Shown here in pieces: positions 2,344 to 62,812 of a stretch of 64,000 bases of DNA. Under the pieces are notes generated by a model. That model ran no database searches and was not told the origin of the DNA. It saw only the letters and a program-made list of their open reading frames with translations. Source of the stretch: Candidatus Woesearchaeota archaeon CG10_big_fil_rev_8_21_14_0_10_44_13 (lineage in GTDB: Archaea > Nanobdellota > Nanobdellia > Woesearchaeales > UBA12501); the NCBI GenBank assembly GCA_002762985.1, contig PCXZ01000018.1:741-64740 (forward strand), given 5' to 3'. Position 1 is the stretch's first letter, and each line of letters opens with the position of its first letter. The position numbers were made by a program, and so were the translations under genes.

Positions 2344-3561
2344 TCATCTGATCAGGTTCTCATAAACATCCATGCATTTCCTTGCAGGCTCATCCCAGCT
2401 GAATCTCCTCACTTCTGTTGAGCCATGTGCAGTGAGCTCATCCTTCAGTTCATCATACCTCAGGATAGAGACGACCTTGTTCGTCATCTCATCTATGTCC
2501 CAGAAATCCACCTTAAAGGCGTTCCTGAGCACCTCTGAGACTCCGCTCTGTTTGGATATCACGACAGGCACATTGTTCTTCAATGCCTCGAGTGGCGTTA
2601 TGCCGAAAGGCTCGCTCACAGAAGGCATCACATAGACATCAGCCATCTGGTATGCCCTGTCAACATCAGCTCCCTTGAGGAACCCTGTGAACAGGACCTT
2701 GTCTGCTATCCCAAGATCAGCCGCTTTCTGGATTATGAAAGGGAGCATATCGCCTGTCCCGCTTATTATGAATTTCACATTAGGATACATGTCAGATATC
2801 CTCCTTGCAGCATAGATGAAATAATCGGGGCCTTTCTGCAGGGTCACCCTGCCGAGGAAAAGGACTGTCTTGAGGCCGTCATTTATCTTGGCATCAGGGA
2901 AATCGTTCTGCTCGAATTCAACTGCATTATGGACTACTGTTATCTTTTTCGGGTCAATGCCGTAATGCTTCACGACCATGTTCTTCGTGTAATTGCTCAC
3001 CGTGATCACCTTGTCTGCCTTCATCAATCCTTCTTTCTCAAGGTCATAGACATACTGGTTGATGCCATTGCCGCCTGTCCTGTCAAATTCAGTGGCATGC
3101 ATATGCACGACCAATGGCTTTCCGCTCACCTCTTTTGCATATATGCCTGCCTGATAGGTGAGCCAGTCATGGCAGTGTATGACATCATAATTCCCTTTCT
3201 CTTTCTCTGCTATTATTTTTGCCCTCCTTGAGAACAGGTAGACTGCCTGGAAAAGGTTCTTCCCGTATAAGCTTATCTTTTCAGCGGGCATTGTCGTCAG
3301 CTCTTTCAGGAATTCGTTCTCATTCATGTAAGGTGTCACCATCGATTCTACCTCTTTGAGTGTGATGTTGCTCATCGCCGAGATCAGCTTGGTGTTCGAA
3401 TTGTCGGATTTGGGCGTCTTAGGCGCCACGAAGATCACCTTTGTGCCGTTATTAGAGAGGCCTTTGACCAGGCCATGGCATGCTGTGCCTAATCCTCCTG
3501 AGCTGTACGGCGGGAACTCCCAGCCGAACATGAGCACCCTTGCGCGCCTATCTCCCTTCAT
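2344..3561 (-). CDS. GT4-family glycosyltransferase (glycogen/starch synthase-like)
   Basis: MFGWEFPPYSSGGLG N-terminus and EPFGITPLEA motif; 405 aa. Confidence 0.8.
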   Translation of the reverse strand: MKGDRRARVLMFGWEFPPYSSGGLGTACHGLVKGLSNNGTKVIFVAPKTPKSDNSNTKLISAMSNITLKEVESMVTPYMNENEFLKELTTMPAEKISLYGKNLFQAVYLFSRRAKIIAEKEKGNYDVIHCHDWLTYQAGIYAKEVSGKPLVVHMHATEFDRTGGNGINQYVYDLEKEGLMKADKVITVSNYTKNMVVKHYGIDPKKITVVHNAVEFEQNDFPDAKINDGLKTVLFLGRVTLQKGPDYFIYAARRISDMYPNVKFIISGTGDMLPFIIQKAADLGIADKVLFTGFLKGADVDRAYQMADVYVMPSVSEPFGITPLEALKNNVPVVISKQSGVSEVLRNAFKVDFWDIDEMTNKVVSILRYDELKDELTAHGSTEVRRFSWDEPARKCMDVYENLIR

Positions 3562-6945: not shown

Positions 6946-6989
6946 AGGTTTTGAGTTGATTGCTCTATCTTTAATGTGTTTTTCTAACA

Positions 6990-7150
6990 ATTTATGCATC
7001 AAAATCAACATTCCATTCGCCTCCAAGGATGAACTTCCTGATATGGCTCATGCCCTCTTCTTTGATTTGCTGAATTACCCCACTACAACCGCTCCCCAGC
7101 CCAGTACGTTGTAGGAGGGGGACGGGGGGGACCTTGGTCCCCCCGTAGAT
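6990..7150 (-). repeat. Intergenic repeat family, copy F (inverted orientation)
   Basis: Reverse complement matches core ...GAAGAGGGCATGAGCCATATCAGGAAGTT...GGAGGCGAATGGAATGTTGATTTTG and hairpin module TAGGAGGGGGACGGGGGGGACC..GGTCCCCCC. Confidence 0.7.
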
Positions 7151-7294
7151 ATTGTTGGTTTATTTCAAAAACATAAATTTTATGAACAAAAACCTAATAA
7201 AAAAACACAAAACCATCACCAATCCAAAAACTATATAAACAACTTCTTTTCATATACTAATAATAAATATCTAAGTGAAAAAAGAGGGGGCTAA

Positions 7295-9139: not shown

Positions 9140-9269
9140 GGAAAGGAGTTTTTTGTGGACACCAGACAATATTTTTTATAAGGGGCGCATTTCTTTCCTC
9201 TAAAATTAGCCACACCCAAAACCGCACAACCTCCAATCTATCCCACCCTATCACCTCAAGGTACTCGAT

Positions 9270-9420
9270 TCACAAAAGGGAGGTAGGGGGATTTAGTTGT
9301 GCGCAGTTGCGATTGTTGAATGGGTTTAAATTGTGCGGCCGTGAGCCATATCAGTGGATTGTGTAGTGGAGGCGAACGGGAGGATGAGGGTCGTCGTGAT
9401 GCAAAAAAGTAGGGATGAGC
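9270..9420 (+). repeat. Intergenic repeat family, copy E (diverged 5' module)
   Basis: GTGAGCCATATCAGTGGATTGTGTAGTGGAGGCGAACGG core followed by GTGATGCAAAAAAG tail. Confidence 0.6.
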
Positions 9421-11149: not shown

Positions 11150-11917
11150 ATGGACATTTCAACACTCAAAGAAGCCGGCCTGACAGAAGGAGAGATCAAG
11201 GTATATCTTGCTTTGTTAGAATTAGGCTCCAGCACAACGGGCCCGATAGTTGAGAAATCCAGGATAGCCCGTTCTATTATTTATCAAATTCTAGAAAAGC
11301 TTATGCAGAAAGGCCTTGTCTCTGTCATAACAAAAGAGAAGACAAAATATTTCCAGGCTGCAGAGCCGAATAAGATATTGGATTACATTGATGAAAGGGA
11401 AGAAAGACTGCAGGAAAACAAGGAGATGATTGAAAAACTGCTGCCGGAGCTTGAACTCAAGCAGAAGATGGCTGTGAAGAGCGCGACAAACATGTATTTT
11501 GGTTACAAAGGCATCCGCACAGCACATGAACATCTGTATTTGAAGCTGAAAAAAGGCGAAAGCTATGATTATATGGGCGTCCCTGCTTTCCAGCCAGAAG
11601 AACAGCATCTTTACTGGAAAAGGGATCATGTCAGAAGAATAAAGGCAAAAATAAAAACAAGAATATTATTCAATATAGATGCTGATCAAAACACATTAAA
11701 AAACAGGAATTCATATTGGGGGGTTGATGCAAGATACATGCCTGAAGGGATAAGAACTCCTGCCTGTTTTGCCATCTTCAAGGATACAACAATAATCATC
11801 TTGCAGTCCCCTCATGCCCTCGCAGTAGAAATAATCAATCAGGACATCGCAGACTCATTCCAGGCCTATTTCGAGGAATTCTGGAAGAGGAGTGAGCCGT
11901 TTAAACCAAACCCCTAA
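11150..11917 (+). CDS. TrmB-family transcriptional regulator
   Basis: N-terminal LTEGEIKVYLALLELGSSTTGPIVEKS.IARS.IYQILEKL wHTH; paralog of the 63275.. ORF. Confidence 0.75.
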   Translation: MDISTLKEAGLTEGEIKVYLALLELGSSTTGPIVEKSRIARSIIYQILEKLMQKGLVSVITKEKTKYFQAAEPNKILDYIDEREERLQENKEMIEKLLPELELKQKMAVKSATNMYFGYKGIRTAHEHLYLKLKKGESYDYMGVPAFQPEEQHLYWKRDHVRRIKAKIKTRILFNIDADQNTLKNRNSYWGVDARYMPEGIRTPACFAIFKDTTIIILQSPHALAVEIINQDIADSFQAYFEEFWKRSEPFKPNP

Positions 11918-12483
11918 ATCTCATGCCCCATCTTCTCTCTTTTCGCATCAAGATACCTCTTGTTATGCCCGTTCGGCTGGACAACGATGGGTATCCTCTC
12001 AGAGACCTCTATGCTTCCGTTCAGCCCCTTTATCTTCTCAGGATTATTCGTGATCAGCCTTATCTTCTTCAGACCGAGATCCTTCAGGATTGCGACAGCA
12101 GCAGAATAATCCCTCTCATCGGCCCTGAAGCCCAGCTGGTGGTTGGCTTCGACTGTGTCCATGCCTTTGTCCTGCAATGAATATGCCTTCATCTTGTTCA
12201 GCAAACCTATGCCCCTGCCTTCCTGCCTGAGATAGATCAAAACACCGTTCCTGCCTTCAGCGATAATCTGCATTGATCTTTCAAGCTGCTCCCTGCAGTC
12301 GCATCTCAATGAGAAAAGAGCCTCTCCTGTCAGGCATTCGGAATGGATCCTTACAAGAGCGCCATCTTCAGGATTCCCTGCTACCAAGGCCATGTGGCAT
12401 TTCTCTCCTTCAGAATAGGGGATCAGCCTGAACTGCCCGAATTTTGTGGGAAACTTCACCTCATCCCCTTTATTTAGCCTCAT
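11914..12483 (-). CDS. ribA: GTP cyclohydrolase II
   Basis: RIHSECLTGEALFSLRCDCREQL zinc-binding motif. Confidence 0.85.
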   Translation of the reverse strand: MRLNKGDEVKFPTKFGQFRLIPYSEGEKCHMALVAGNPEDGALVRIHSECLTGEALFSLRCDCREQLERSMQIIAEGRNGVLIYLRQEGRGIGLLNKMKAYSLQDKGMDTVEANHQLGFRADERDYSAAVAILKDLGLKKIRLITNNPEKIKGLNGSIEVSERIPIVVQPNGHNKRYLDAKREKMGHEI

Positions 12484-13586
12484 ATATATCCCTCTATGAC
12501 GACATCATCGCCTATCTTCCTTATCTCGACATCCCTGAGGTTTATCGCCTGGTCCATGTTCCTTATGCCTTCTCCGCCGAGAGGCGTCTTTGCATCCCTG
12601 CCGCCGATGATCTTGGGGGAGATGAAATAGACGAATTTGTCGACTATGCCTTGTTTCAGCGCAGAGGCGCTTATCTCTGAGCCCCCTTCAATCATTATAT
12701 TTGTTATACCCCTTAGGACAAGCTCATACATCAGCTCTTTCAGGTCAACCTTATCTTCATCCTTCCCGACAATCACAACACCGATGCCTTTCTGCTCAAG
12801 CGCCACCTTTTTCTGCCTGTCGCATCTCTTTGTCGTTGCGATCAGCGCATTCTTGTCTGCCAATATCCTTGAATCCAATGGTATCCTCAATCTGCTGTCG
12901 AGTATTATCCTCAAAGGGTCCCTTCCGTTCTCCATCCTGCATGTAAGCCTAGGATTGTCGTGAAGGACGGTGTTTATGCCGACGATGACTGCATCAACCC
13001 GGTTCCTGAGTTCATGGACATATCTCCTGCTCGCCTCTGAGCTTATCCATTTCGACATCCCTGTAGTGGTTGCTATCTTCCCGTCCAGCGTCATGGCTGC
13101 CTTCAATATGACGAACGGCCTTTTTGTAGTGACATATTTTATGAATGCCTCGTTCAGCTTCCTTGTCTCCTTCTCCATTATGCCGTATTCAGTCTCTATC
13201 CCGTGTTTTTTCAGTTCCCGGAAGCCATTCCCGTTCACTTTCGGATTCGGGTCCTGGATAGAGGAGACGACCCTGCTTATGCCTGCCTCGATTATCGCTT
13301 TTGTGCATGGGCCTGTACGGCCATAGTGGCAGCAGGGTTCAAGAAGGGTGTACATGGTTGCGCCTTTCAGCATGCTCTTGTCGCTTACAGAATTCATCGC
13401 CTCGATCTCAGCATGAGGCATGCCAGCTTTCTTATGGTACCCATGGCCTATCACTGTGCAGTCTTTGACTATGACTGCCCCCACTATGGGATTCGGAGAA
13501 GTCCTTCCTTCAGCTTTCCTGGCCAGCTCAAACGCAAGCTGCATGAAATAGCTGTCCTCTTTTTTTCCTCGCCCTTCCATTTTCAT
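12480..13586 (-). CDS. ribD: Bifunctional riboflavin deaminase/reductase
   Basis: HAEIEAM ... PCCHYGRTGPC deaminase motif plus C-terminal reductase domain; 368 aa. Confidence 0.85.
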   Translation of the reverse strand: MKMEGRGKKEDSYFMQLAFELARKAEGRTSPNPIVGAVIVKDCTVIGHGYHKKAGMPHAEIEAMNSVSDKSMLKGATMYTLLEPCCHYGRTGPCTKAIIEAGISRVVSSIQDPNPKVNGNGFRELKKHGIETEYGIMEKETRKLNEAFIKYVTTKRPFVILKAAMTLDGKIATTTGMSKWISSEASRRYVHELRNRVDAVIVGINTVLHDNPRLTCRMENGRDPLRIILDSRLRIPLDSRILADKNALIATTKRCDRQKKVALEQKGIGVVIVGKDEDKVDLKELMYELVLRGITNIMIEGGSEISASALKQGIVDKFVYFISPKIIGGRDAKTPLGGEGIRNMDQAINLRDVEIRKIGDDVVIEGYI

Positions 13587-18622: not shown

Positions 18623-18734
18623 GGGGATTTTTTAACAGGAATATATTTCTTATAATATTGAATGGTTTGTTTACATTTAATATCCAACATTATTTGCGGG
18701 ATAGATATGGTAATCTTTTATAGGACATACAACC

Positions 18735-18910
18735 TTATCTGAGGGGGAACGCGGTTCCCCCCGTCCCCCTCCTATAACGCAACTATGTTGGAGAGCAGTT
18801 GTTTGCGGGCAGTTGAGCGAGATAATGAAGAGAGCATGAGCCATATCCAGAAGTTCTGCGATGGAGGCGAATGGAAGGGGGATGATACAAAAAACTTAAA
18901 ATTGAAATAT
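18735..18910 (+). repeat. Intergenic repeat family, copy A
   Basis: TTATCTGAGGGGGAACGCGGTTCCCCCCGTCCCCCTCCT hairpin module, GAGCCATATCCAGAAGTTCTGCGATGGAGGCGAATGG core, GATGATACAAAAAACTTAAAAT tail. Confidence 0.7.
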
Positions 18911-19040
18911 GGGAGAATAACGAGTAGGTAACTCACCAGTAATCAAAATCCAAAAACATCTATTCTTTATAATACAACATCAAGAATATATTATTCATCG
19001 CAACATTATTTAAAAACAAAATGCCACAACACCTTTATGC

Positions 19041-20157: not shown

Positions 20158-21606
20158 TTACCCTCCTTTTTTGTCCAATTTCAAATCATCATCCTGATTG
20201 TAGTGCAGATCGTATCTCAATGCCAATTCTGCCTTCTGGAGCTCTGAACCTATGTCCAAAGCATGGCTCATCTGAGAGATGACATGTTTCCTGTCAAGCA
20301 TCCTGAATATCTCTGCTGCGTTCCTGCCCCTGAACTCGTCCAGCTTCTTGCCTTCCTGGCTGTAATGCGAGATCACAATCTCTTTCTTCTCCTTATCCAC
20401 CTTTATCACAACATTGCCTCTTGGGTCCCATTCATGCTCCTTGCCCTTGTAATATATGTCAAGGATCTCCTGAACTTCTTTCATGCTCTCTTCATATATA
20501 TGGGCAGAAGCCGAGAATATTGTCATAGAGCCCATCTTTATCCCTGTCTCTTCAGAAACGTGCTTCTGGAGTTTCCTCAGCGCAAAGGCGTTCTGCGGCC
20601 ATCCCCTGTACATGTCATGGCTCCTGAAATATGCATTCATGAACAGCCTGTTGTCCTGCACGATGAAATTGACAAGGTCAAGGCATGGCGCATGCTCGTT
20701 ATACACATCCTTGCCAACATCCCATGTGACTGCTATGGCTCTCCTTGTGAAAGGCTCTTTCTTCAGCTTTTCTATGACTGACCTTATCTGGTCTACGCCT
20801 TCATGATCCATTAGCCTCTGGCCATAGGTGTAGTTTATGCCCTGGATTTTGTTGGCAGTCAGGACTTGGGGGTAATATGCCTCAAGCTCTTTTTTCGTGA
20901 AATTGAAGAAATCGTACCATCTCGGCTCTTCGGGGTCTTCGTCAGTTATTACAGCGACGATATTGAGCAGCTCTTTCTGCGTAGTGCTGTGGTGGCTTTT
21001 CTTTATGTGGCCGAACCTCATTATCTTGCTAAGGAGGATTATCCATGCCATCCCGACTGTCTTCGCCCTTATCTTGAATACAGAGCTGTCTGTAGGGAAT
21101 CTTTCAGGCAGCTCAAGCTTTGGCTCTGGGAAAAGCCTTGGCTTCCCAAAAGGCTTCCTGCCCTTGTCAATAGAACCTATCCTTTCTGCTATCTTCTTCG
21201 GATCGATCACTCCGATCATATTTATTATCTCAACATTCTTCCTGAATTCTGCAACCGCTTCATCAGGTATCTCTTTCTCTATGTGTGCGTTTTCAACTCC
21301 GAGAATGTTATGCCTGCTGTCTATGCCGTTTTTTGCCAGGCTTAAAAGCGCTTCACCGCTCCCTGACTTGTCTGTGCCGCAAAGGATTATGTATCTTATC
21401 GCAGGATTCGCGAATATGTTCCTTATTATGGCATTTATGCCTGCCTTCGAGTACAATTGGCCGATTGTAGAGAAAGAATTCCTGTCAAGGCCTTTCGCTA
21501 TCATCTCTTTCTCAGTCCACAAGGTGATTATGCTGATATTGCTGTCCTTATCACCGACTATAAGATTCTCAGAAAAATAAATAGGCCATCCCTCCTTCAT
21601 CTGCAT
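20158..21606 (-). CDS. thyA: Thymidylate synthase (ThyA family) with an ~170-aa N-terminal extension of unknown function
   Basis: C-terminal TS domain with RRAIAVTWD and HAPC nucleophile motifs; 482 aa in total. Confidence 0.75.
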   Translation of the reverse strand: MQMKEGWPIYFSENLIVGDKDSNISIITLWTEKEMIAKGLDRNSFSTIGQLYSKAGINAIIRNIFANPAIRYIILCGTDKSGSGEALLSLAKNGIDSRHNILGVENAHIEKEIPDEAVAEFRKNVEIINMIGVIDPKKIAERIGSIDKGRKPFGKPRLFPEPKLELPERFPTDSSVFKIRAKTVGMAWIILLSKIMRFGHIKKSHHSTTQKELLNIVAVITDEDPEEPRWYDFFNFTKKELEAYYPQVLTANKIQGINYTYGQRLMDHEGVDQIRSVIEKLKKEPFTRRAIAVTWDVGKDVYNEHAPCLDLVNFIVQDNRLFMNAYFRSHDMYRGWPQNAFALRKLQKHVSEETGIKMGSMTIFSASAHIYEESMKEVQEILDIYYKGKEHEWDPRGNVVIKVDKEKKEIVISHYSQEGKKLDEFRGRNAAEIFRMLDRKHVISQMSHALDIGSELQKAELALRYDLHYNQDDDLKLDKKGG

Positions 21607-22308: not shown

Positions 22309-22401
22309 ATTATCAGGTTTTTATATAGTTTGTGGTGGTAAAAGTTTAAGGTTGTTTTGTTTATAGTGCTATTATTGGCAGAAGGAATTTTTTTACATAG
22401 A

Positions 22402-22513
22402 ACGCCGCCATCACCGCGGCTCGACGATCTCCTCACGTCGTTCGGAGCCCTACTCGGCACCCCGGAGGGGCCGACCCCCGCCTCGCCGAGCGCAGTGGCG
22501 GCGTGCGCAGGAC
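22402..22513 (+). other. GC-rich structured island, candidate cis-regulatory or small RNA upstream of the ACS gene
   Basis: ~110 nt of >70% GC in a ~40% GC genome; 9-bp terminal helix (ACGCCGCCA / TGGCGGCGT) enclosing at least two internal hairpins. Confidence 0.3.
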
Positions 22514-22566
22514 AAAACAAAAAAATATATAAACCAACCAATAAAATAATGTTATCAGGGGGTTTT

Positions 22567-24564
22567 ATGGACGTCGTAAAGACTATATTCGAAGGAGCGA
22601 AAAAACTGCTTGCATTGGCAGAGAAAAGCCTTAAAGAAGGTGATGTGAAGCCTTTTTCTGATACTGAGTACAATCTTCCTGTAGTATATGCGCTGTTCGG
22701 CAGGGAGATAAAGGGAAAAGAGGATGCTGCTGAGATTCTCGATAAGATAAGGAAAAAGCTAGAGAAAGAGCAGACATTGGAGAATGCTCTAAAGGCAGGG
22801 GTTTATTCTTATGCCCTGCTGGAGCTTGTTGAAGCCGTAAAATATGCTAAAGAGAATAAGACCAATTTCATCCCTGACACTGTGATAAGGAGCCTGGGCC
22901 TGCCTCTGGTCAATGGGACGATCCCTGGCGTCGCTGTTGTTGTCGGAAAGGCAAAAGACGAAGAGGAGATGAAAAAAGTCCTTGAGGAAGCTGTCTCACA
23001 TGCGCTACTTGTCCTTGTTGTCGGAGAATGCTGCAATCAGTATGATAAGACAAAATTTACTCCTGAGAAAAATGTCATCCCTATAGGCGCAGAACCCACA
23101 AACCTTGCCCACGTCATGAATATTGTGTTTAGGATACCGATGATCTTCGCAAAGATACCTCCTGGAGAGAAAAAAGAGATAGAAGAGTATATAACGGAGA
23201 GGGTTCCTGCTTTTGTGGTGGTTCTCGGAGAGATTGATGAGGTTGTTTTAGCTTTGGGAGCCGGCTGTTTAAGGTTAGGATTTCCAATCACTACAACAAA
23301 TGAAGCTGGAAAAGCAGTGGAACAAATCTTTGTAGGCCCTGCAGAAAAACTTATTGATGAAGGTGTAAAAAGAAAGGGGATTAAATCGAAGAAACTGGAC
23401 ATAAGACTGCCTATGGGCTATGGGAACCTTTATGTCGGGGAAACGATAAGGAAAGAGGATATGGCCCTGGAATTCGGCGGGAAGAAGTCAAAGGCATTCG
23501 AGCTTGTCCAGAAAGATGATTCCATAGAAGACGGTAAAGTCGAGATCATCGGCAAGGACATTGATGGCCTTGCAGAGAATGCGAATGTGGGTTTGATAGT
23601 CAGTGTGGCAGGAGACTTTGAGAAGGATGCAGAGCCTGTGTTCGAGAGGATGATACATGAGCACCTCAATAAGATAGAGGGATTCATGCATCTCGCTTCA
23701 AGGGATATCATATGGTGCAGGTTCTCCAATGAGGCCAAGAAGAAAGGGCTGAAGCTGAAGAATCTGGGAGAAGTCCTTGTGAGATCGATGAAACAGGAAT
23801 TCCCATTGATAGAGAAGGCTTCAGCGACAATAATAACAGATGATGATGAGTTCAGCAAGCAGCTTGCGCATGCGAAACATGTCTACAAGGAGAGGGATGA
23901 CAGGATAAAAGGCCTTACAGAGGAGAATGTGGATATGTTCTATGGCTGCACTATGTGCCAGAGCTTCGCCCCTAATCATGTATGTGTCATAACACCCGAG
24001 AGGATTGCGCTGTGCGGCGCGATAACATGGCTGGATGCAAAGACTGCGATGAAGATAAATCCTTCTGGCATGAATTTTGAGATACCTAAGGGAAGCATCA
24101 TTGACAATGAGAAGGGGGAATATGAAGGTGTGAATAAGATCGTGAAGCAGAAATCCCACGGCAAGATCGACCGTTTCCATCTCCATTCGATATTCGGCTT
24201 CCCGCATACAAGCTGCGGCTGTTTTGAAGCGATCGCGTTCTATATCCCTGAAGTCGACGGCATAGGCATTGTGCACCGTGATTTCAAGGGAGAAACCCCT
24301 ATCGGGATGAAATTTTCCACTCTTGCAGGAATGACTGGAGGAGGGCTGCAGTCAGAAGGGCTGATCGGAGTGGGAACTGCTTATGTTGCATCTAAGAAAG
24401 CGTTCCTGGGCCAGGGCGGCAGGGGGAAGATAGTTTGGCTGCCGAAGGAGCTGAAAGAGAGGTATAAGGATGATATTCCTGCTGAGATTTTTGGGAAGAT
24501 TGCGAGTGAGGAGGATGTGAAGGATATAAATGAGCTGCAAAAATGGGTTGATGGAAAGAAATAG
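22567..24564 (+). CDS. acsB: Acetyl-CoA synthase catalytic subunit (AcsB/CdhC family), bacterial-length
   Basis: C-x2-C-x8-C-x9-C ... (+67) C-G-C spacing identical to the A-cluster ligands of Moorella AcsB; YVGETIRKEDMALEFGG middle-domain motif; alternative start at 22549. Confidence 0.8.
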   Translation: MDVVKTIFEGAKKLLALAEKSLKEGDVKPFSDTEYNLPVVYALFGREIKGKEDAAEILDKIRKKLEKEQTLENALKAGVYSYALLELVEAVKYAKENKTNFIPDTVIRSLGLPLVNGTIPGVAVVVGKAKDEEEMKKVLEEAVSHALLVLVVGECCNQYDKTKFTPEKNVIPIGAEPTNLAHVMNIVFRIPMIFAKIPPGEKKEIEEYITERVPAFVVVLGEIDEVVLALGAGCLRLGFPITTTNEAGKAVEQIFVGPAEKLIDEGVKRKGIKSKKLDIRLPMGYGNLYVGETIRKEDMALEFGGKKSKAFELVQKDDSIEDGKVEIIGKDIDGLAENANVGLIVSVAGDFEKDAEPVFERMIHEHLNKIEGFMHLASRDIIWCRFSNEAKKKGLKLKNLGEVLVRSMKQEFPLIEKASATIITDDDEFSKQLAHAKHVYKERDDRIKGLTEENVDMFYGCTMCQSFAPNHVCVITPERIALCGAITWLDAKTAMKINPSGMNFEIPKGSIIDNEKGEYEGVNKIVKQKSHGKIDRFHLHSIFGFPHTSCGCFEAIAFYIPEVDGIGIVHRDFKGETPIGMKFSTLAGMTGGGLQSEGLIGVGTAYVASKKAFLGQGGRGKIVWLPKELKERYKDDIPAEIFGKIASEEDVKDINELQKWVDGKK

Positions 24565-24600
24565 TTATGTAATTTTAACCTGACATTTCAAAAATATTTG

Positions 24601-24800
24601 TGGGGAAACTACGTTTCCCCTTACCCCCTTCCTACATTGTGCTGGGAAGGGGAGCAAAAGCAGGCATTCAGGTGAGTTGTTTAAGGCAAAGAAGAGGGCA
24701 TGAGGCATATAGGGAAGTTGTGTGATGGAGCCGAATGGAATGTTGTTTTTGAAAAAAACAACTAAGAAAACCGAAGGTTTTCTGTTGAGGAAAAAATAGT
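24601..24800 (+). repeat. Intergenic repeat family, copy C (between acsB and cooC)
   Basis: TGGGGAAACTACGTTTCCCCTTACCCCCTTCCT hairpin module; CATGAGGCATATAGGGAAGTTGTGTGATGGAGCCGAATGG core; second hairpin GTTGTTTTTGAAAAAAACAAC. Confidence 0.7.
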
Positions 24801-24823
24801 TTTATGGGGAAAAGATTATTAAA

Positions 24824-25564
24824 ATGATAGTAGCAATCTCAGGCAAAGGCGGCGTAGGCAAGACAGTCTTCTCAGCTTTGACCATAAAATACCTCACGTC
24901 AAAAGGGAAGAAAGTCCTTGCTGTCGATGCAGACCCTGATGCGAACCTTGCAGAGGCCCTCGGTGTTGAAGTCGAGAACAGCATCGGCGGGATAAGGGAG
25001 GAATTGCAGAAGATCCAGCACAAGATACCTGGCGGACTGACAAAAGAGGCTTTCCTGCAGAGGAAGATACAGGAGATAATAAGCGAACATAAGGGTTTCG
25101 ACCTTCTTGTTATGGGGCGTGCAGAAGGCCAGGGCTGCTATTGCTGGGTCAACAACATATTGAGAGAAAACATAGACAAATTATCTGCCAATTATGATTT
25201 CACAATAATCGACTGTGAAGCGGGGCTTGAGCATCTGTCAAGAAGGACGACAAAAGATGTTGATATTATGTTCGTAGTGCTTGACCAATCAAGGCTTTCC
25301 CTTAACACTGCATTAAGGATAAAAGAGCTGGCAAAAGAGGTTGATATAAATTTCAAGAAGCTTTTCATAGTGCAGAACAAGGGCCAGAACAAGAACTTTG
25401 AGAAAGAGGCAGGGAAGGAAGGAATCAAGGTCATTGGAGTCCTGCCTGAAGACAATGAGATCGTGAGGCTGTACAGCGAGGGGAAAGCCATAACTGGCAT
25501 AAGCGAGAAGGCAAATGCTTATTATTCTGTCAAACAGGTTTGGGAGAACCAAAATATTTATTAA
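24824..25564 (+). CDS. cooC: CooC/AcsF-type Ni-insertion ATPase (MinD/ParA family)
   Basis: Deviant Walker A SGKGGVGKT and GQGCYCW CxC nickel-binding motif; 246 aa. Confidence 0.8.
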   Translation: MIVAISGKGGVGKTVFSALTIKYLTSKGKKVLAVDADPDANLAEALGVEVENSIGGIREELQKIQHKIPGGLTKEAFLQRKIQEIISEHKGFDLLVMGRAEGQGCYCWVNNILRENIDKLSANYDFTIIDCEAGLEHLSRRTTKDVDIMFVVLDQSRLSLNTALRIKELAKEVDINFKKLFIVQNKGQNKNFEKEAGKEGIKVIGVLPEDNEIVRLYSEGKAITGISEKANAYYSVKQVWENQNIY

Positions 25565-53404: not shown

Positions 53405-53606
53405 CAGGACTATGGGGCATCACATTCAAAGGCTCCCTATATGGTTCTGTTTTCTCAACCACCCCCAACGAAACCCTTTTCATAATAGGGAGCCTTTCAT
53501 ATTCATTCTGGGACATTTGATGTTACTTATTGCATTCTTTTCGCTCAGCAACAACAATATTGGCGCCTAGATATGCTGATTACTAAAAACAATTAACAAC
53601 AATATC

Positions 53607-53700
53607 GGTGGGGAAACTACGTTTCCCCCTGCCCCTTCCTGCAACGGGCCGGAGAAGAGGGAGCATTTGGTGGTTATTGCCTTATCTTGTTTGGGATATC
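53607..53700 (+). repeat. Intergenic repeat family, copy D (truncated)
   Basis: GGTGGGGAAACTACGTTTCCCCCTGCCCCTTCCT hairpin module and GAAGAGGGAGCAT core fragment. Confidence 0.55.
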
Positions 53701-53873: not shown

Positions 53874-55052
53874 ATGGCGGAAATTATCAAAAAAGCAATT
53901 GAGTACTTCATTAAATCTTTTGAAGGGATATCTGATAAAGATAGGGACTCCCTTGCCAAAATGTCTGAGATGGACAAGGAGATATTGAGATATATCAAGA
54001 CTAAGAATATTTCTAATTTACACGCCCATTACCAAAACAGGAGGGAGCAGATAAACCCTTTGATTGAGCGTATAGGGTTGTTCGGTCTGATGATCGACAG
54101 GAACCATCTAAGGCTCAGCAAGAAGAAAGAAGATGATTTGATTGCCGAGACATATTCCCTGGATAAGATGATAGAAATGCAGGATGCTCTAGAAAATCCA
54201 AGAAGGCTTATCACAAAGATAGATGAGTACAAGAACATAATCAGCGCATTGAAAAATGAAGAGAATAGATTAAGCAAGATAAGGGATGAGCTGGCAGACA
54301 AAGTTGACAAGCTCATAACAATAGACGACTTAACAAAGTTGTATCGCAAGGAATTCTTTAAAAAAAGGGCGATAGAGGAGATTGCAAGGGCAATGAGGAC
54401 AGGGGAAGGATTTCTTATATTAATGTCGGACATAGATCATTTTGGCGAGTATAATGATACTTTCGGCCATATCCCCGCAGGTGACGAGGCATTAAAGACT
54501 GTTGCAAGGGTATTAAGCAGATCAGTAAGGGAAGGGGACATTGGTGAAAGGCATGGAAATGATAATTATGAGAATGAAGGCGGCAGGCAGGGCGGCGAAG
54601 AGTTCGTATACCTTATACATGGGGTGCCAAAAGAAAAAGCGCACAGCATAGTTGACAGGGTAAGAAAAAATGTCGAATCTACAGTATTCGATGAATACAA
54701 TCCCCTCAACCCGGAAAAGAACGGATATGGCATGATGACCTCGCCTGACTGCATCCAGCCAGGATATGACAGCAAGAAAATCACCACAAGCATAGGTTAT
54801 TTAACATTCGATCCTAATGAATTCAAAGACCCTTCTGCATTCAGATATTCCACTGATTTTGAAAGGATTTCCAATGCAAAGGAGATACGCCCGAATGATA
54901 TATTCATGGAGATGATGAGGCGCATAGATGCAGCGTTATATGTGGCCAAAGGTTCAGGCAGGAATAATGTAAAAAGGTATGATCCTAGCATGGAGATTGG
55001 CAACAATGCAAAAGTACATGAACTTAGCATGGAGAATTGCAAACATGAATAG
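53874..55052 (+). CDS. GGDEF-domain diguanylate cyclase with N-terminal coiled-coil region
   Basis: DIDHFGEYNDTFGH..GDEAL, RQGGEEF, TTSIGYL, IDAALYVAKGSGRNNV motifs. Confidence 0.7.
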   Translation: MAEIIKKAIEYFIKSFEGISDKDRDSLAKMSEMDKEILRYIKTKNISNLHAHYQNRREQINPLIERIGLFGLMIDRNHLRLSKKKEDDLIAETYSLDKMIEMQDALENPRRLITKIDEYKNIISALKNEENRLSKIRDELADKVDKLITIDDLTKLYRKEFFKKRAIEEIARAMRTGEGFLILMSDIDHFGEYNDTFGHIPAGDEALKTVARVLSRSVREGDIGERHGNDNYENEGGRQGGEEFVYLIHGVPKEKAHSIVDRVRKNVESTVFDEYNPLNPEKNGYGMMTSPDCIQPGYDSKKITTSIGYLTFDPNEFKDPSAFRYSTDFERISNAKEIRPNDIFMEMMRRIDAALYVAKGSGRNNVKRYDPSMEIGNNAKVHELSMENCKHE

Positions 55053-55719: not shown

Positions 55720-55769
55720 TTATTTTCTAATTCTTTTCCAAATTTTTTTATAATAAAAACTCGCGCTCG

Positions 55770-56105
55770 GAGCTACTGAAAATCTGCGGATTTTCATACT
55801 CAAAAACTTTGTTTTTGACTACGGAAAATTGCGATTTTCATAGTCACGCCCGCTTCGCTCGGTGACTATCTCCTGCCTTTAGGCCGGAGTATTACGCTCC
55901 TCGCATTGATAGCGAGTTTTTAGTCTTGAAAACGCTCAGAAATCAAAGATTTCTGGCGTGCCAAAAATGCTTTGCATTTTTGATCATGGCGCAATCGCAC
56001 TGAAGTGTGAGGTATTACTTGCGAACTTGTTCGCAAGTCTGAAAATCTCGACTTTAGTCGGGATTTTCTTTAAACCGCCAGAAAATGGCTTACGCCATTT
56101 TCAAT
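55770..56105. repeat. Array of at least eight distinct perfect hairpins in a convergent intergenic region
   Basis: GAAAATCtgcgGATTTTC, CAAAAACtttGTTTTTG, GAAAATtgcgATTTTC, CAAAAATGCtttGCATTTTTG, CTTGCGAACttgGTTCGCAAG, GAAAATC..GATTTTC, GAAAATGGCttacGCCATTTTC. Confidence 0.6.
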
Positions 56106-56138
56106 AAGAATATAGTTATTGGTAAGGCCAGCAGCAGT

Positions 56139-62435: not shown

Positions 62436-62517
62436 TTTTGGCCTCTTTTGCATAGGGAAGTAAAGGAGGGGTGTTTAAAAATATTGTGATGTTGTTAGGT
62501 ATGAAACAAATCATCAT

Positions 62518-62746
62518 TATCTGAGGAGGAACGCGGTTCCCCCCGTCCCCCTCCTGCATTTGACTGGGCGACTGCGCGGTTGTTTTTGGGAAGTTGAGCA
62601 AGGGTAAATTTGTGCCTCAGTGAGCCATATCCGGAAGTTGTATGATTTATGGCGAACGGAATGTTGATTTTGGAACAAAATCAACTAATAAAATTCGCAG
62701 ATTTTCTGTTGAGGGAGATGATGCAAAAAACTTAAAATAAAAATAT
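62518..62746 (+). repeat. Intergenic repeat family, copy B (full length)
   Basis: TTATCTGAGGAGGAACGCGGTTCCCCCCGTCCCCCTCCT; GAGCCATATCCGGAAGTT core; GTTGATTTTGGAACAAAATCAAC hairpin; GATGATGCAAAAAACTTAAAATAAAAATAT tail. Confidence 0.7.
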
Positions 62747-62812
62747 AGAAACTAAAAAAATCAGTTTTGTTTAAAATAATAATAAAAACATAAAAAAAGA
62801 ATTAAAATAAAT

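Follow-up and report, generated by a model that had tools for sequence, protein, structure and literature searches.

Towards the end of a 64-kb stretch of archaeal DNA (the window, by which the whole analysed stretch is meant) lies a short, hairpin-rich repeat whose stem arms appear to change in step from copy to copy. The question raised by this locus is whether the stems are held by selection on secondary structure, at the level of RNA or of DNA, as a preliminary description proposed, and what sort of element could carry such a constraint. Several features can be stated directly: the pairing is constrained; the build is modular; there is no coding capacity; and the element differs by presence or absence between relatives. 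The reading that we consider probable, if only just, is that the element is a lineage-specific, dispersing, non-coding repeat of Woesearchaeota-like (DPANN) archaea that is structured as RNA, and that the stem first noticed, hairpin 2, is one of its stems.

Seven copies of the family were counted in the window, six on the forward strand and one on the reverse strand, a density of about one copy per 9 kb. Coordinates are given for six of them:

Copy A, 18702-18912, forward strand: core hairpin at about 18834-18874; without the cassette of hairpins 2 and 3.
Copy B, 62494-62770, forward strand: the whole inserted element, antisense between two reverse-strand genes, a PfkB kinase and a 122-aa ORF.
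Copy C, 24562-24796, forward strand: between cdhC and cooC; core at 24657-24746.
Copy D, 53568 to about 53800, forward strand: 5' domain intact (hairpin 1, C-tract and second hairpin); core degenerated to CTGAGCCATTATAGC.
Copy E, 9190-9412, forward strand: type-2 5' domain (CCACACCC..UCCCACCC); core at 9295-9387.
Copy F, 6946-7225, reverse strand: the sole reverse-strand copy; core at 7005-7095.

Copies A to E came from repeat finding and alignment, and copy F was added by a covariance model of the core (R1), which matches copy B at 62573-62667 with 73.5 bits. A second model, built on the 5' domain (R2), confirmed copy D, which R1 misses (53593-53669, 73.8 bits), and found no additional copies in the window. 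Copy B was delimited on its left by aligning it to the orthologous sites of L026 and L027, which are empty; on its right, the A/T-rich flank allows only an approximate boundary. Outside the window, 13 further non-identical copies are known, 12 in Ga0210057 metagenome contigs and one in a Candidatus Nanoarchaeia MAG (L005). A strict core pattern searched against public collections recovered one true member in the Nanoarchaeia MAG and 10 in Ga0210057, and R1 and R2 added three. Pattern matches in L014 and L016 are repeats of the L005 copy, and one in L012 looks like chance. The same pattern had no match in IMG/VR, where a viral origin was looked for, and literature searches by sequence string and keyword returned no published description of the family.

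The stems that raised the question are those of hairpins 1 to 3:

Hairpin 1 of copy A, 18743-18761, forward strand: GGGGGAAC/GTTCCCCC.
Hairpin 1 of copy B, 62525-62543, forward strand: GGAGGAAC-gcg-GTTCCCCC, with one A.C mismatch.
Hairpin 1 of copy C, 24602-24620, forward strand: GGGGAAAC/GTTTCCCC.
Hairpin 1 of copy D, 53610-53628, forward strand: GGGGAAAC/GTTTCCCC.
Hairpin 1 of copy F, 7125-7144, reverse strand: GGGGGGAC-caag-GTCCCCCC.
Hairpin 2 of copy B, 62663-62685, forward strand: GTTGATTTTG-gaa-CAAAATCAAC, that is, GTTGATTTT(G)-gaa-(C)AAAATCAAC.
Hairpin 2 of copy C, 24742-24762, forward strand: GTTGTTTTT-gaa-AAAAACAAC.
Hairpin 3 of copy B, 62688-62707, forward strand: ATAAAATT-cgc-AGATTTTCT, decayed, with one mismatch and one U.G pair.
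Hairpin 3 of copy C, 24765-24783, forward strand.

Hairpin 2 is present where it was first described, one base downstream of the interval 62662-62684 originally assigned to it. Direct reading of copies B and C bears out the exchange of A:T for T:A at stem position 5. The loop contrast that had been drawn between them (ggaac vs gaa) was a matter of how the stem was drawn: both loops are GAA, because the extra G:C pair of copy B belongs to the stem, which then has 10 bp. For hairpin 1, the paired switch that had been reported is real between copy A and copies C and D; copy B had been given the arms of copy A, and its A.C mismatch had been overlooked. The hairpin-1 pattern GGGRAACNNNGTTYCCC has four matches in the window where shuffles predict 0.01, and the stem recurs as GGGGAAC-caag-GTTCCCC in L017 and as GGGGAAAC-gtg-GTTTCCCC in L018. 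Altogether five stem versions are seen, complementary in all but copy B's, with A:T and G:C exchanged on both arms at two stem positions and broken pairs in one of about 64 stem cells. Covariation extends to hairpin 3: copy C and L008 have CC/GG in the inner stem, L008 also has TT/AA, and L023 has TAT/ATA. An extra hairpin confined to one subfamily shows paired substitutions as well (CAAATG/CATTTG, CCAGATG/CATCTGG and GAGATGG/CCATCTC). Across hairpins 1-3, the only stem exceptions are copy B's hairpin-1 mismatch and its decayed hairpin 3.

Paired changes of this kind might in principle arise with no structural selection, if hairpin-templated repair or template switching during replication produced those in hairpins 1-3 and shared ancestry accounts for the remainder. 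Hairpins 1 and 2 are perfect palindromes; the independent events are few (hairpin 1 varies at two positions, hairpin 2 at one); and copies C and D, like copies A and B, are near-identical in their hairpins. All of this suits templated repair. The core of the element provides the more discriminating case:

Core hairpin of copy B, 62618-62659, forward strand: CAG-UGA-GCC ... GGC-GAA-CGG, with tandem G.A, enclosing a conserved AUAUC..GUUGU loop.

The core consensus is 5'-C-R-U-(G-A)-G-C-C / G-G-C-(G-A)-A-Y-G-3', with a conserved loop AUAUC..GUUGUG..UGGA. In an alignment of 18 non-identical sequences, 97.2% of helix cells are paired, with 11 both-side changes, no one-side changes and three unpaired cells; the both-side changes fall at four of the six pairs. 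They include: A:U in 11 sequences against G:C in seven; C:G to G:C in copy C; C:G to A:U in a copy at L009 (3119-3257, hereafter L009b); and C:G to G.U together with U:A to C:G in L008b. None of 500 shuffles matched the observed covariation, a statistic that overstates the number of independent events because many copies share descent and only three lineages are known as carriers. The shuffle control ignores relatedness; the core variants are scattered over unrelated types of 5' domain. When the partner strand was slid by 1-3 columns, pairing fell to about 30%.

The UGA/GAA internal loop is symmetric (3x3) in the alignment, and the R:Y pair that flanks it covaries in 18 of 18 sequences, so the core helix is continuous past the loop. 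Since the loop is symmetric and has no bulge, the core is not a kink-turn, and an L7Ae-binding motif of that type was ruled out. Two further helices fared less well. The inner stem UAUC/GRUG is 78% paired and showed zero paired changes in the covariation test, and a long-range helix between the C-tract and a G-tract reached p = 0.07 in a test of cognate against non-cognate pairs and is without covariation support. Conservation along the element is uneven: pairwise identity is 76% in the core but drops to 48% across the 46 alignment columns on its 5' side. This means that the core is maintained, either copy by copy or in the lineages that source new copies. Its unpaired nucleotides, too, are highly conserved.

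These observations place strain on the templated-repair explanation. The core helix is imperfect (tandem G.A), its arms lie 24-100 nt apart, and it nonetheless covaries at four pairs; for this helix, templated repair is already disfavoured, though it may have acted in the perfect palindromes. Nor could the process yield hairpins inserted precisely at loops, as in L009b, where two hairpins sit within the core loop and insertions are thus tolerated exactly where loops are predicted, or sequence-unrelated stems around a conserved loop. We regard it as a very improbable account of the family as a whole. In the larger alignment, stem-breaking single changes are rarer than paired ones (none against 11 in the core, with the same tendency in hairpins 1-3 and the subfamily hairpin), which supports the structural reading. 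The original proposal of selection on secondary structure is thus favoured, by the core covariation and by the paired substitutions in hairpins 1-3 and the subfamily hairpin.

Which molecule carries the fold is a separate matter. Points for a forward-strand RNA include a G.U pair in the L008b core, a U.G pair in hairpin 3 of copy B, U.G pairs in the small 5' hairpin and a nine-pair closing helix in copy A. A point against is the hairpin-1 mismatch of copy B, which is A.C on the forward strand and would be G.U on the reverse. Copy A folds better than its shuffles on the forward strand (z = -3.75, vs -1.86 on the reverse), and the free energy is lower on the forward strand in 10 of 13 copies; once corrected by shuffling, the z-scores of the 13 copies are not consistently better on the forward strand. 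Folded as a whole, the elements exceed shuffles in stability by a modest margin, which for type-2 copies is near zero. Together, the G.U pairs and folding energies lean, without being decisive, toward a forward-strand RNA, and the constraint may instead act on single-stranded or cruciform DNA.

The element as a whole is about 200-280 nt long, intergenic and modular, with a variable 5' domain, the conserved core, an optional cassette, and a 3' box followed by an A-rich tail. The type-1 5' domain comprises: CAACAATATCTG; the G+C-rich terminal hairpin 1; a C-rich tract, CCCCCUCCU; and a small hairpin, CCUR..UGGG. The type-2 domain has CCCCACCC..UCCCRCCC and an AAUGUGC..GCACA hairpin, and L005 represents a third type. 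The C-rich tract is conserved in both of the first two. The 3' modules of copy B are as follows:

Cassette, 62662-62711, forward strand: optional, 50 nt, hairpins 2 and 3, with TGTTG direct repeats at both ends.
3' box, 62720-62745, forward strand: GATGCAAAAAAC-TTAAAATA, then the A-rich tail; common to most copies.

Further material is accommodated near hairpin 1. In L019, L013 and L007, a domain of about 130-150 nt (an estimate) lies within or after it. In this subfamily (L019 430-670, reverse strand; L013 10789-10990; L007 13400-13567, reverse strand) the insertion at hairpin 1 contains multiple hairpins and GGYGGTGTCAATGG.

The cassette runs in the order hairpin 2, CTAAG, hairpin 3, CTGTTG. 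It is carried by copies B and C and twice in L008, and about 15 other copies are without it. L008 3051-3161 is 79% identical to window 62662-62768, and the cassettes of copy B and L008 are far more similar than the elements that carry them. Hairpins with A/U stems of this kind (an A-run pairing with a U-run, the loop often being GAA or AAA) are also common outside the family, and are concentrated in convergent intergenic regions: six perfect ones lie at 55.76-56.11 kb of the window, and all eight in L023 fall in a single long convergent spacer (11.85-12.51 kb), with none elsewhere in that locus. Because they present oligo-U on both strands, a role as bidirectional terminators or 3'-end stabilisers is plausible. 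Archaeal termination needs only oligo-U, so the contribution of the hairpins to termination is uncertain.

These convergent spacers have features of their own. The 350-nt spacer at window 55760-56110 holds about ten short A/U-stem hairpins (for example TGAAAATC-tgcg-GATTTTCA and CAAAAATGC-ttt-GCATTTTTG) and a 23-nt tandem unit repeated 3.1 times. Pieces of it recur in Ga0210057 loci, L018 3098-3138 being 97.5% identical to window 56033-56073. The L023 spacer (11850-12510), which is orthologous to the site of copy E, is occupied by a different hairpin-rich element with its eight A/U-stem hairpins, a 20-bp long-range inverted repeat (GCAGGCAGCAACAACATTGG / CCATTGTTGTTGCTGCCTGA) and a nested repeat (GGCGGTGATGAT.. 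/ ..ATCATCACCGCC). A shared loop, CGCTTCGCTC or its complement GAGCGCAGCGA, appears at window 55839-55862, L013 10914-10940 and L013 at about 11150-11180 on unrelated stems (GTCAC/GTGAC, GGACCATT/AATGGTCC and CCACGGGTT/AACCCGTGG). A conserved loop on unrelated stems suggests a class of hairpins recognised by the loop.

The element does not code for protein. There is no conserved ORF on either strand, and the reverse-strand 'MAHAL..' peptides are not conserved. A small ORF from an ATG or GTG at the start of the core was rejected on account of in-frame stops in L007, L017 and L018 and a frameshift in copy B. Known RNA families are likewise missing: Rfam 15 had no match in the whole window at gathering thresholds; at E <= 10, copies B and C gave only chance-level matches; and five copy-bearing loci gave only tRNAs. 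No CRISPR array was found in the window. An own promoter was considered and set aside, the TTTATATAG box upstream of copy F, L017, L018 and L019 matching the genome-wide BRE/TATA consensus; in copy F, L017 and L019 this box precedes a divergently oriented neighbouring gene. The family 3' box, GCAAAAAAC-TTAAAATA, also resembles the BRE/TATA promoter consensus of the genome. The promoter consensus itself, AAAACTATATAAA (BRE plus TATA), is found seven times in the window (for example at 7227, 22320, 31861, 47243, 57310 and 59811), where 0.13 occurrences would be expected; it often precedes an ATG by about 30 nt, a spacing that implies many leaderless transcripts.

The genes of the window include NMD3, an XPD-type helicase, an MtrA-like fusion protein, glycogen-metabolism enzymes and a CODH/ACS cluster. 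As the nearest homologues of two window proteins are labelled Woesearchaeota, Nanoarchaeota or Nanoarchaeia, the host is taken to be an uncultivated DPANN archaeon. The fusion protein (20158-21606, reverse strand) joins MtrA-like, thymidylate-synthase-like and pterin-binding DUF4346 domains and is conserved in the syntenic L023. At 53874-55052, a 392-aa protein contains a GGDEF diguanylate-cyclase domain (E = 4e-24), a domain unusual in archaea.

Comparison with relatives shows where the repeat is missing. Contigs from several samples that carry the window genes are 99.96-100% identical to one another and so are uninformative on strain variation. More distant relatives, at 74-88% protein identity, have empty sites in all four testable cases (A, B, C and F). 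The cdhC-cooC spacer is 12 nt in L022, whose CooC is 88% identical, vs the copy C of about 235 nt in the window. In L023, which shares synteny with the window over 22 kb at 74% protein identity, neither R1 nor R2 finds a copy, against three in the window; the L023 spacers at the sites of copies F and A, 100 and 118 nt, are both empty. At the copy B site, L026 and L027 (PfkB 84% and 79% identical) have empty spacers of 100 and 119 nt, and the alignment sets the left end of copy B directly after the conserved PfkB promoter, with no duplication needed.

Copy C is inserted at the cdhC-cooC junction of the CODH/ACS cluster (22357-25564). With it come U-tracts and, immediately before cooC, a TATA-like AAAAAATAGTTTTA, by which expression of the cluster may have been rewired.

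The surroundings of the copies vary. They take both orientations relative to their neighbours and are tied to no single gene family, and copies of one subtype occupy unrelated contexts in a sister genome (E vs L010). Only two copies adjoin tRNA genes. One, in L019, lies tail-to-tail with a 99-nt tRNA gene (196-294) that probably contains an intron and was missed by ARAGORN but found by Rfam; the other, in L009, adjoins a tRNA-Arg at 2999-3074. Some copies are degraded: D has decayed, the copy at L007 (about 13340-13567) has lost its core, and that in L019 is interrupted.

One alternative is that the copies are genes for a trans-acting small regulatory RNA, multiplied by duplication, in which the C-tract CCCCCUCCU mimics an anti-Shine-Dalgarno sequence and pairs with G-rich ribosome-binding sites while the core is a protein-binding scaffold. 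The retention of the C-rich tract in both types of 5' domain, the GGAGG and GAGGGGG motifs upstream of window gene starts, the constancy of unpaired core nucleotides and the indifference of the copies to neighbouring genes and their orientation would all fit such a gene. The genomic distribution speaks otherwise. We know of no regulatory sRNA family that comes near a density of about one copy per 9 kb; the absence of any copy from the syntenic 22 kb of L023, where the window has three, and the decayed, core-deleted and interrupted copies also sit poorly with a set of regulators. We judge this alternative unlikely.

A dispersing repeat invites a search for the means of its movement. In local alignments, the 5' leader and its own reverse-complemented 3' tail score 20.3 on average and non-cognate pairs 19.5, giving no sign of terminal inverted repeats; apparent leader/tail complementarity in L019 and L013 failed the same cognate vs non-cognate test. 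The longest flank repeats, at 8-11 bp, are of lengths that shuffles also produce, and their distance from the conserved ends is inconsistent. Candidate target duplications (AAATAGTT at copy C, ATATGG and CAACATTATTT at copy A, TTGTT at copy B) were dismissed as inconsistent and within chance. Neither TnpA, TnpB nor RAYT was found among the 20 largest window ORFs (Pfam) or beside about 20 copies, in all some 0.25 Mb of genomes covered, and no reverse transcriptase was seen in the window or adjoining copies. Since the searches for a mobilising enzyme, for terminal inverted repeats and for target duplications were all negative, the word 'dispersing' refers here to presence and absence between relatives and to nothing further.

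Another possibility would be a constraint on single-stranded DNA, the repeat being a non-autonomous relative (PATE or REP-like) of IS200/IS605-type elements, with hairpins that a Y1/HUH transposase acting in trans would recognise and a core that may be a remnant of a TnpB omega RNA. IS200/IS605 elements share the lack of terminal inverted repeats and of a consistent target duplication, and the compensatory changes in hairpins, the conserved 3' box followed by variable DNA and the common orientation of six of the seven window copies would fit as well. The ends, on the other hand, do not match: the G+C-rich hairpin is found only at the left end of type-1 copies, and the right end is an unstructured A-rich tail. 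The tandem G.A and the 23-nt conserved loop are unlike the DNA hairpins bound by transposases, Rfam gave no match even to HEARO and omega-type families, and the enzymes themselves were missing from the sequence surveyed. An origin from a TnpB/IS605 guide RNA was rejected, no transposase-like ORF lying in the window or beside the copies. We consider the single-stranded DNA alternative quite unlikely.

Returning to a structured RNA, the core might do more than fold. It could be an active module, self-cleaving or protein-recruiting, that drives propagation, making the repeat a SINE- or retrozyme-like mobile element that spreads by way of RNA; we know of no such class in DPANN archaea. Consistent with this are the invariant unpaired nucleotides, the hammerhead-like tandem G.A, the hairpin insertions tolerated at loops, the A-rich 3' tail, the lack of inverted repeats and the flank repeats of variable length. 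The likeness to hammerhead domain 2 (G8-A9 / stem II / G12-A13-A14) resides in U-G-A-[GCC...GGC]-G-A-A, a tandem sheared G.A on a short G+C helix. The hammerhead ribozyme itself was rejected: of its CUGANGA...GAAA core only the UGA/GAA half is there, the CUGA turn, three-way junction and cleavage site are absent, and no Rfam hammerhead matched at E <= 10. An active core of this kind is, in our estimation, a decidedly long shot.

If the element is a dispersing repeat structured as RNA, as we prefer, it would be transcribed, probably from the forward strand, and selection would act on the folded RNA. A factor encoded by the cell or by the element itself would recognise the core, and hairpin 1 may serve as a protective 5' stem. 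The A/U-stem cassette could act as a U-tract-bearing module for termination or stabilisation, of a kind common in the genome, and the element would have spread through intergenic regions.

Elements of this kind are already known from bacterial dispersed repeats; this is a new family, not a new principle. In the Bacillus cereus group, bcr1 is transcribed and non-conserved in position and keeps its RNA fold through compensatory changes, with some copies unstructured, and the pneumococcal SPRITE is terminator-like (PMC3184786). The present family resembles bcr1, BOX, RUP and ERIC in being short (about 150-250 nt for these repeats), non-coding, multi-copy, intergenic and not conserved in position among close relatives, and it shares with bcr1, BOX and SPRITE a lineage-specific distribution and a fold kept by compensatory changes. 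In contrast to bcr1, which is bacterial, has a fixed 5-bp direct repeat and has been shown to be transcribed, the family belongs to a DPANN archaeon, has no fixed flanking repeat and is known from sequence; its build is also the more modular of the two, a single conserved core hairpin being combined with interchangeable 5' domains. As small stem-loops with A- and U-tracts at gene 3' ends and in convergent spacers, the cassette of hairpins 2 and 3 and the similar hairpins outside the family recall SPRITE and REP/BIME, although the cassette stems are A/U-rich, not G+C-rich, and no RAYT was found beside copies. MITEs, archaeal ones included, are similar in size, copy number, lack of an ORF, intergenic insertion and filled vs empty sites in relatives, whereas here terminal inverted repeats and fixed-length target duplications are missing and the most conserved part is internal, not terminal. 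With the PATEs of IS200/IS605 and TnpB omega RNAs, the family has in common the lack of inverted repeats and duplications, a hairpin in sub-terminal position and, close to one end, a non-coding segment with structure; it differs in having no nearby TnpA or TnpB, no paired end hairpins and no model match.

DPANN archaea have tiny genomes, and to our knowledge almost nothing is known of their non-coding RNA or small mobile DNA. The family adds a candidate RNA class that is supported by covariation and absent from Rfam, with interchangeable domains and hairpin cassettes targeted to loops. It marks recent genome change in the lineage, one copy lying inside the CO-dehydrogenase/acetyl-CoA synthase cluster, and it hints at a larger set of small hairpin modules with a possible role in punctuating transcription in the host lineage. 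Were the core to prove catalytic, or to be the handle for a mobilisation machinery, its importance would be much greater.
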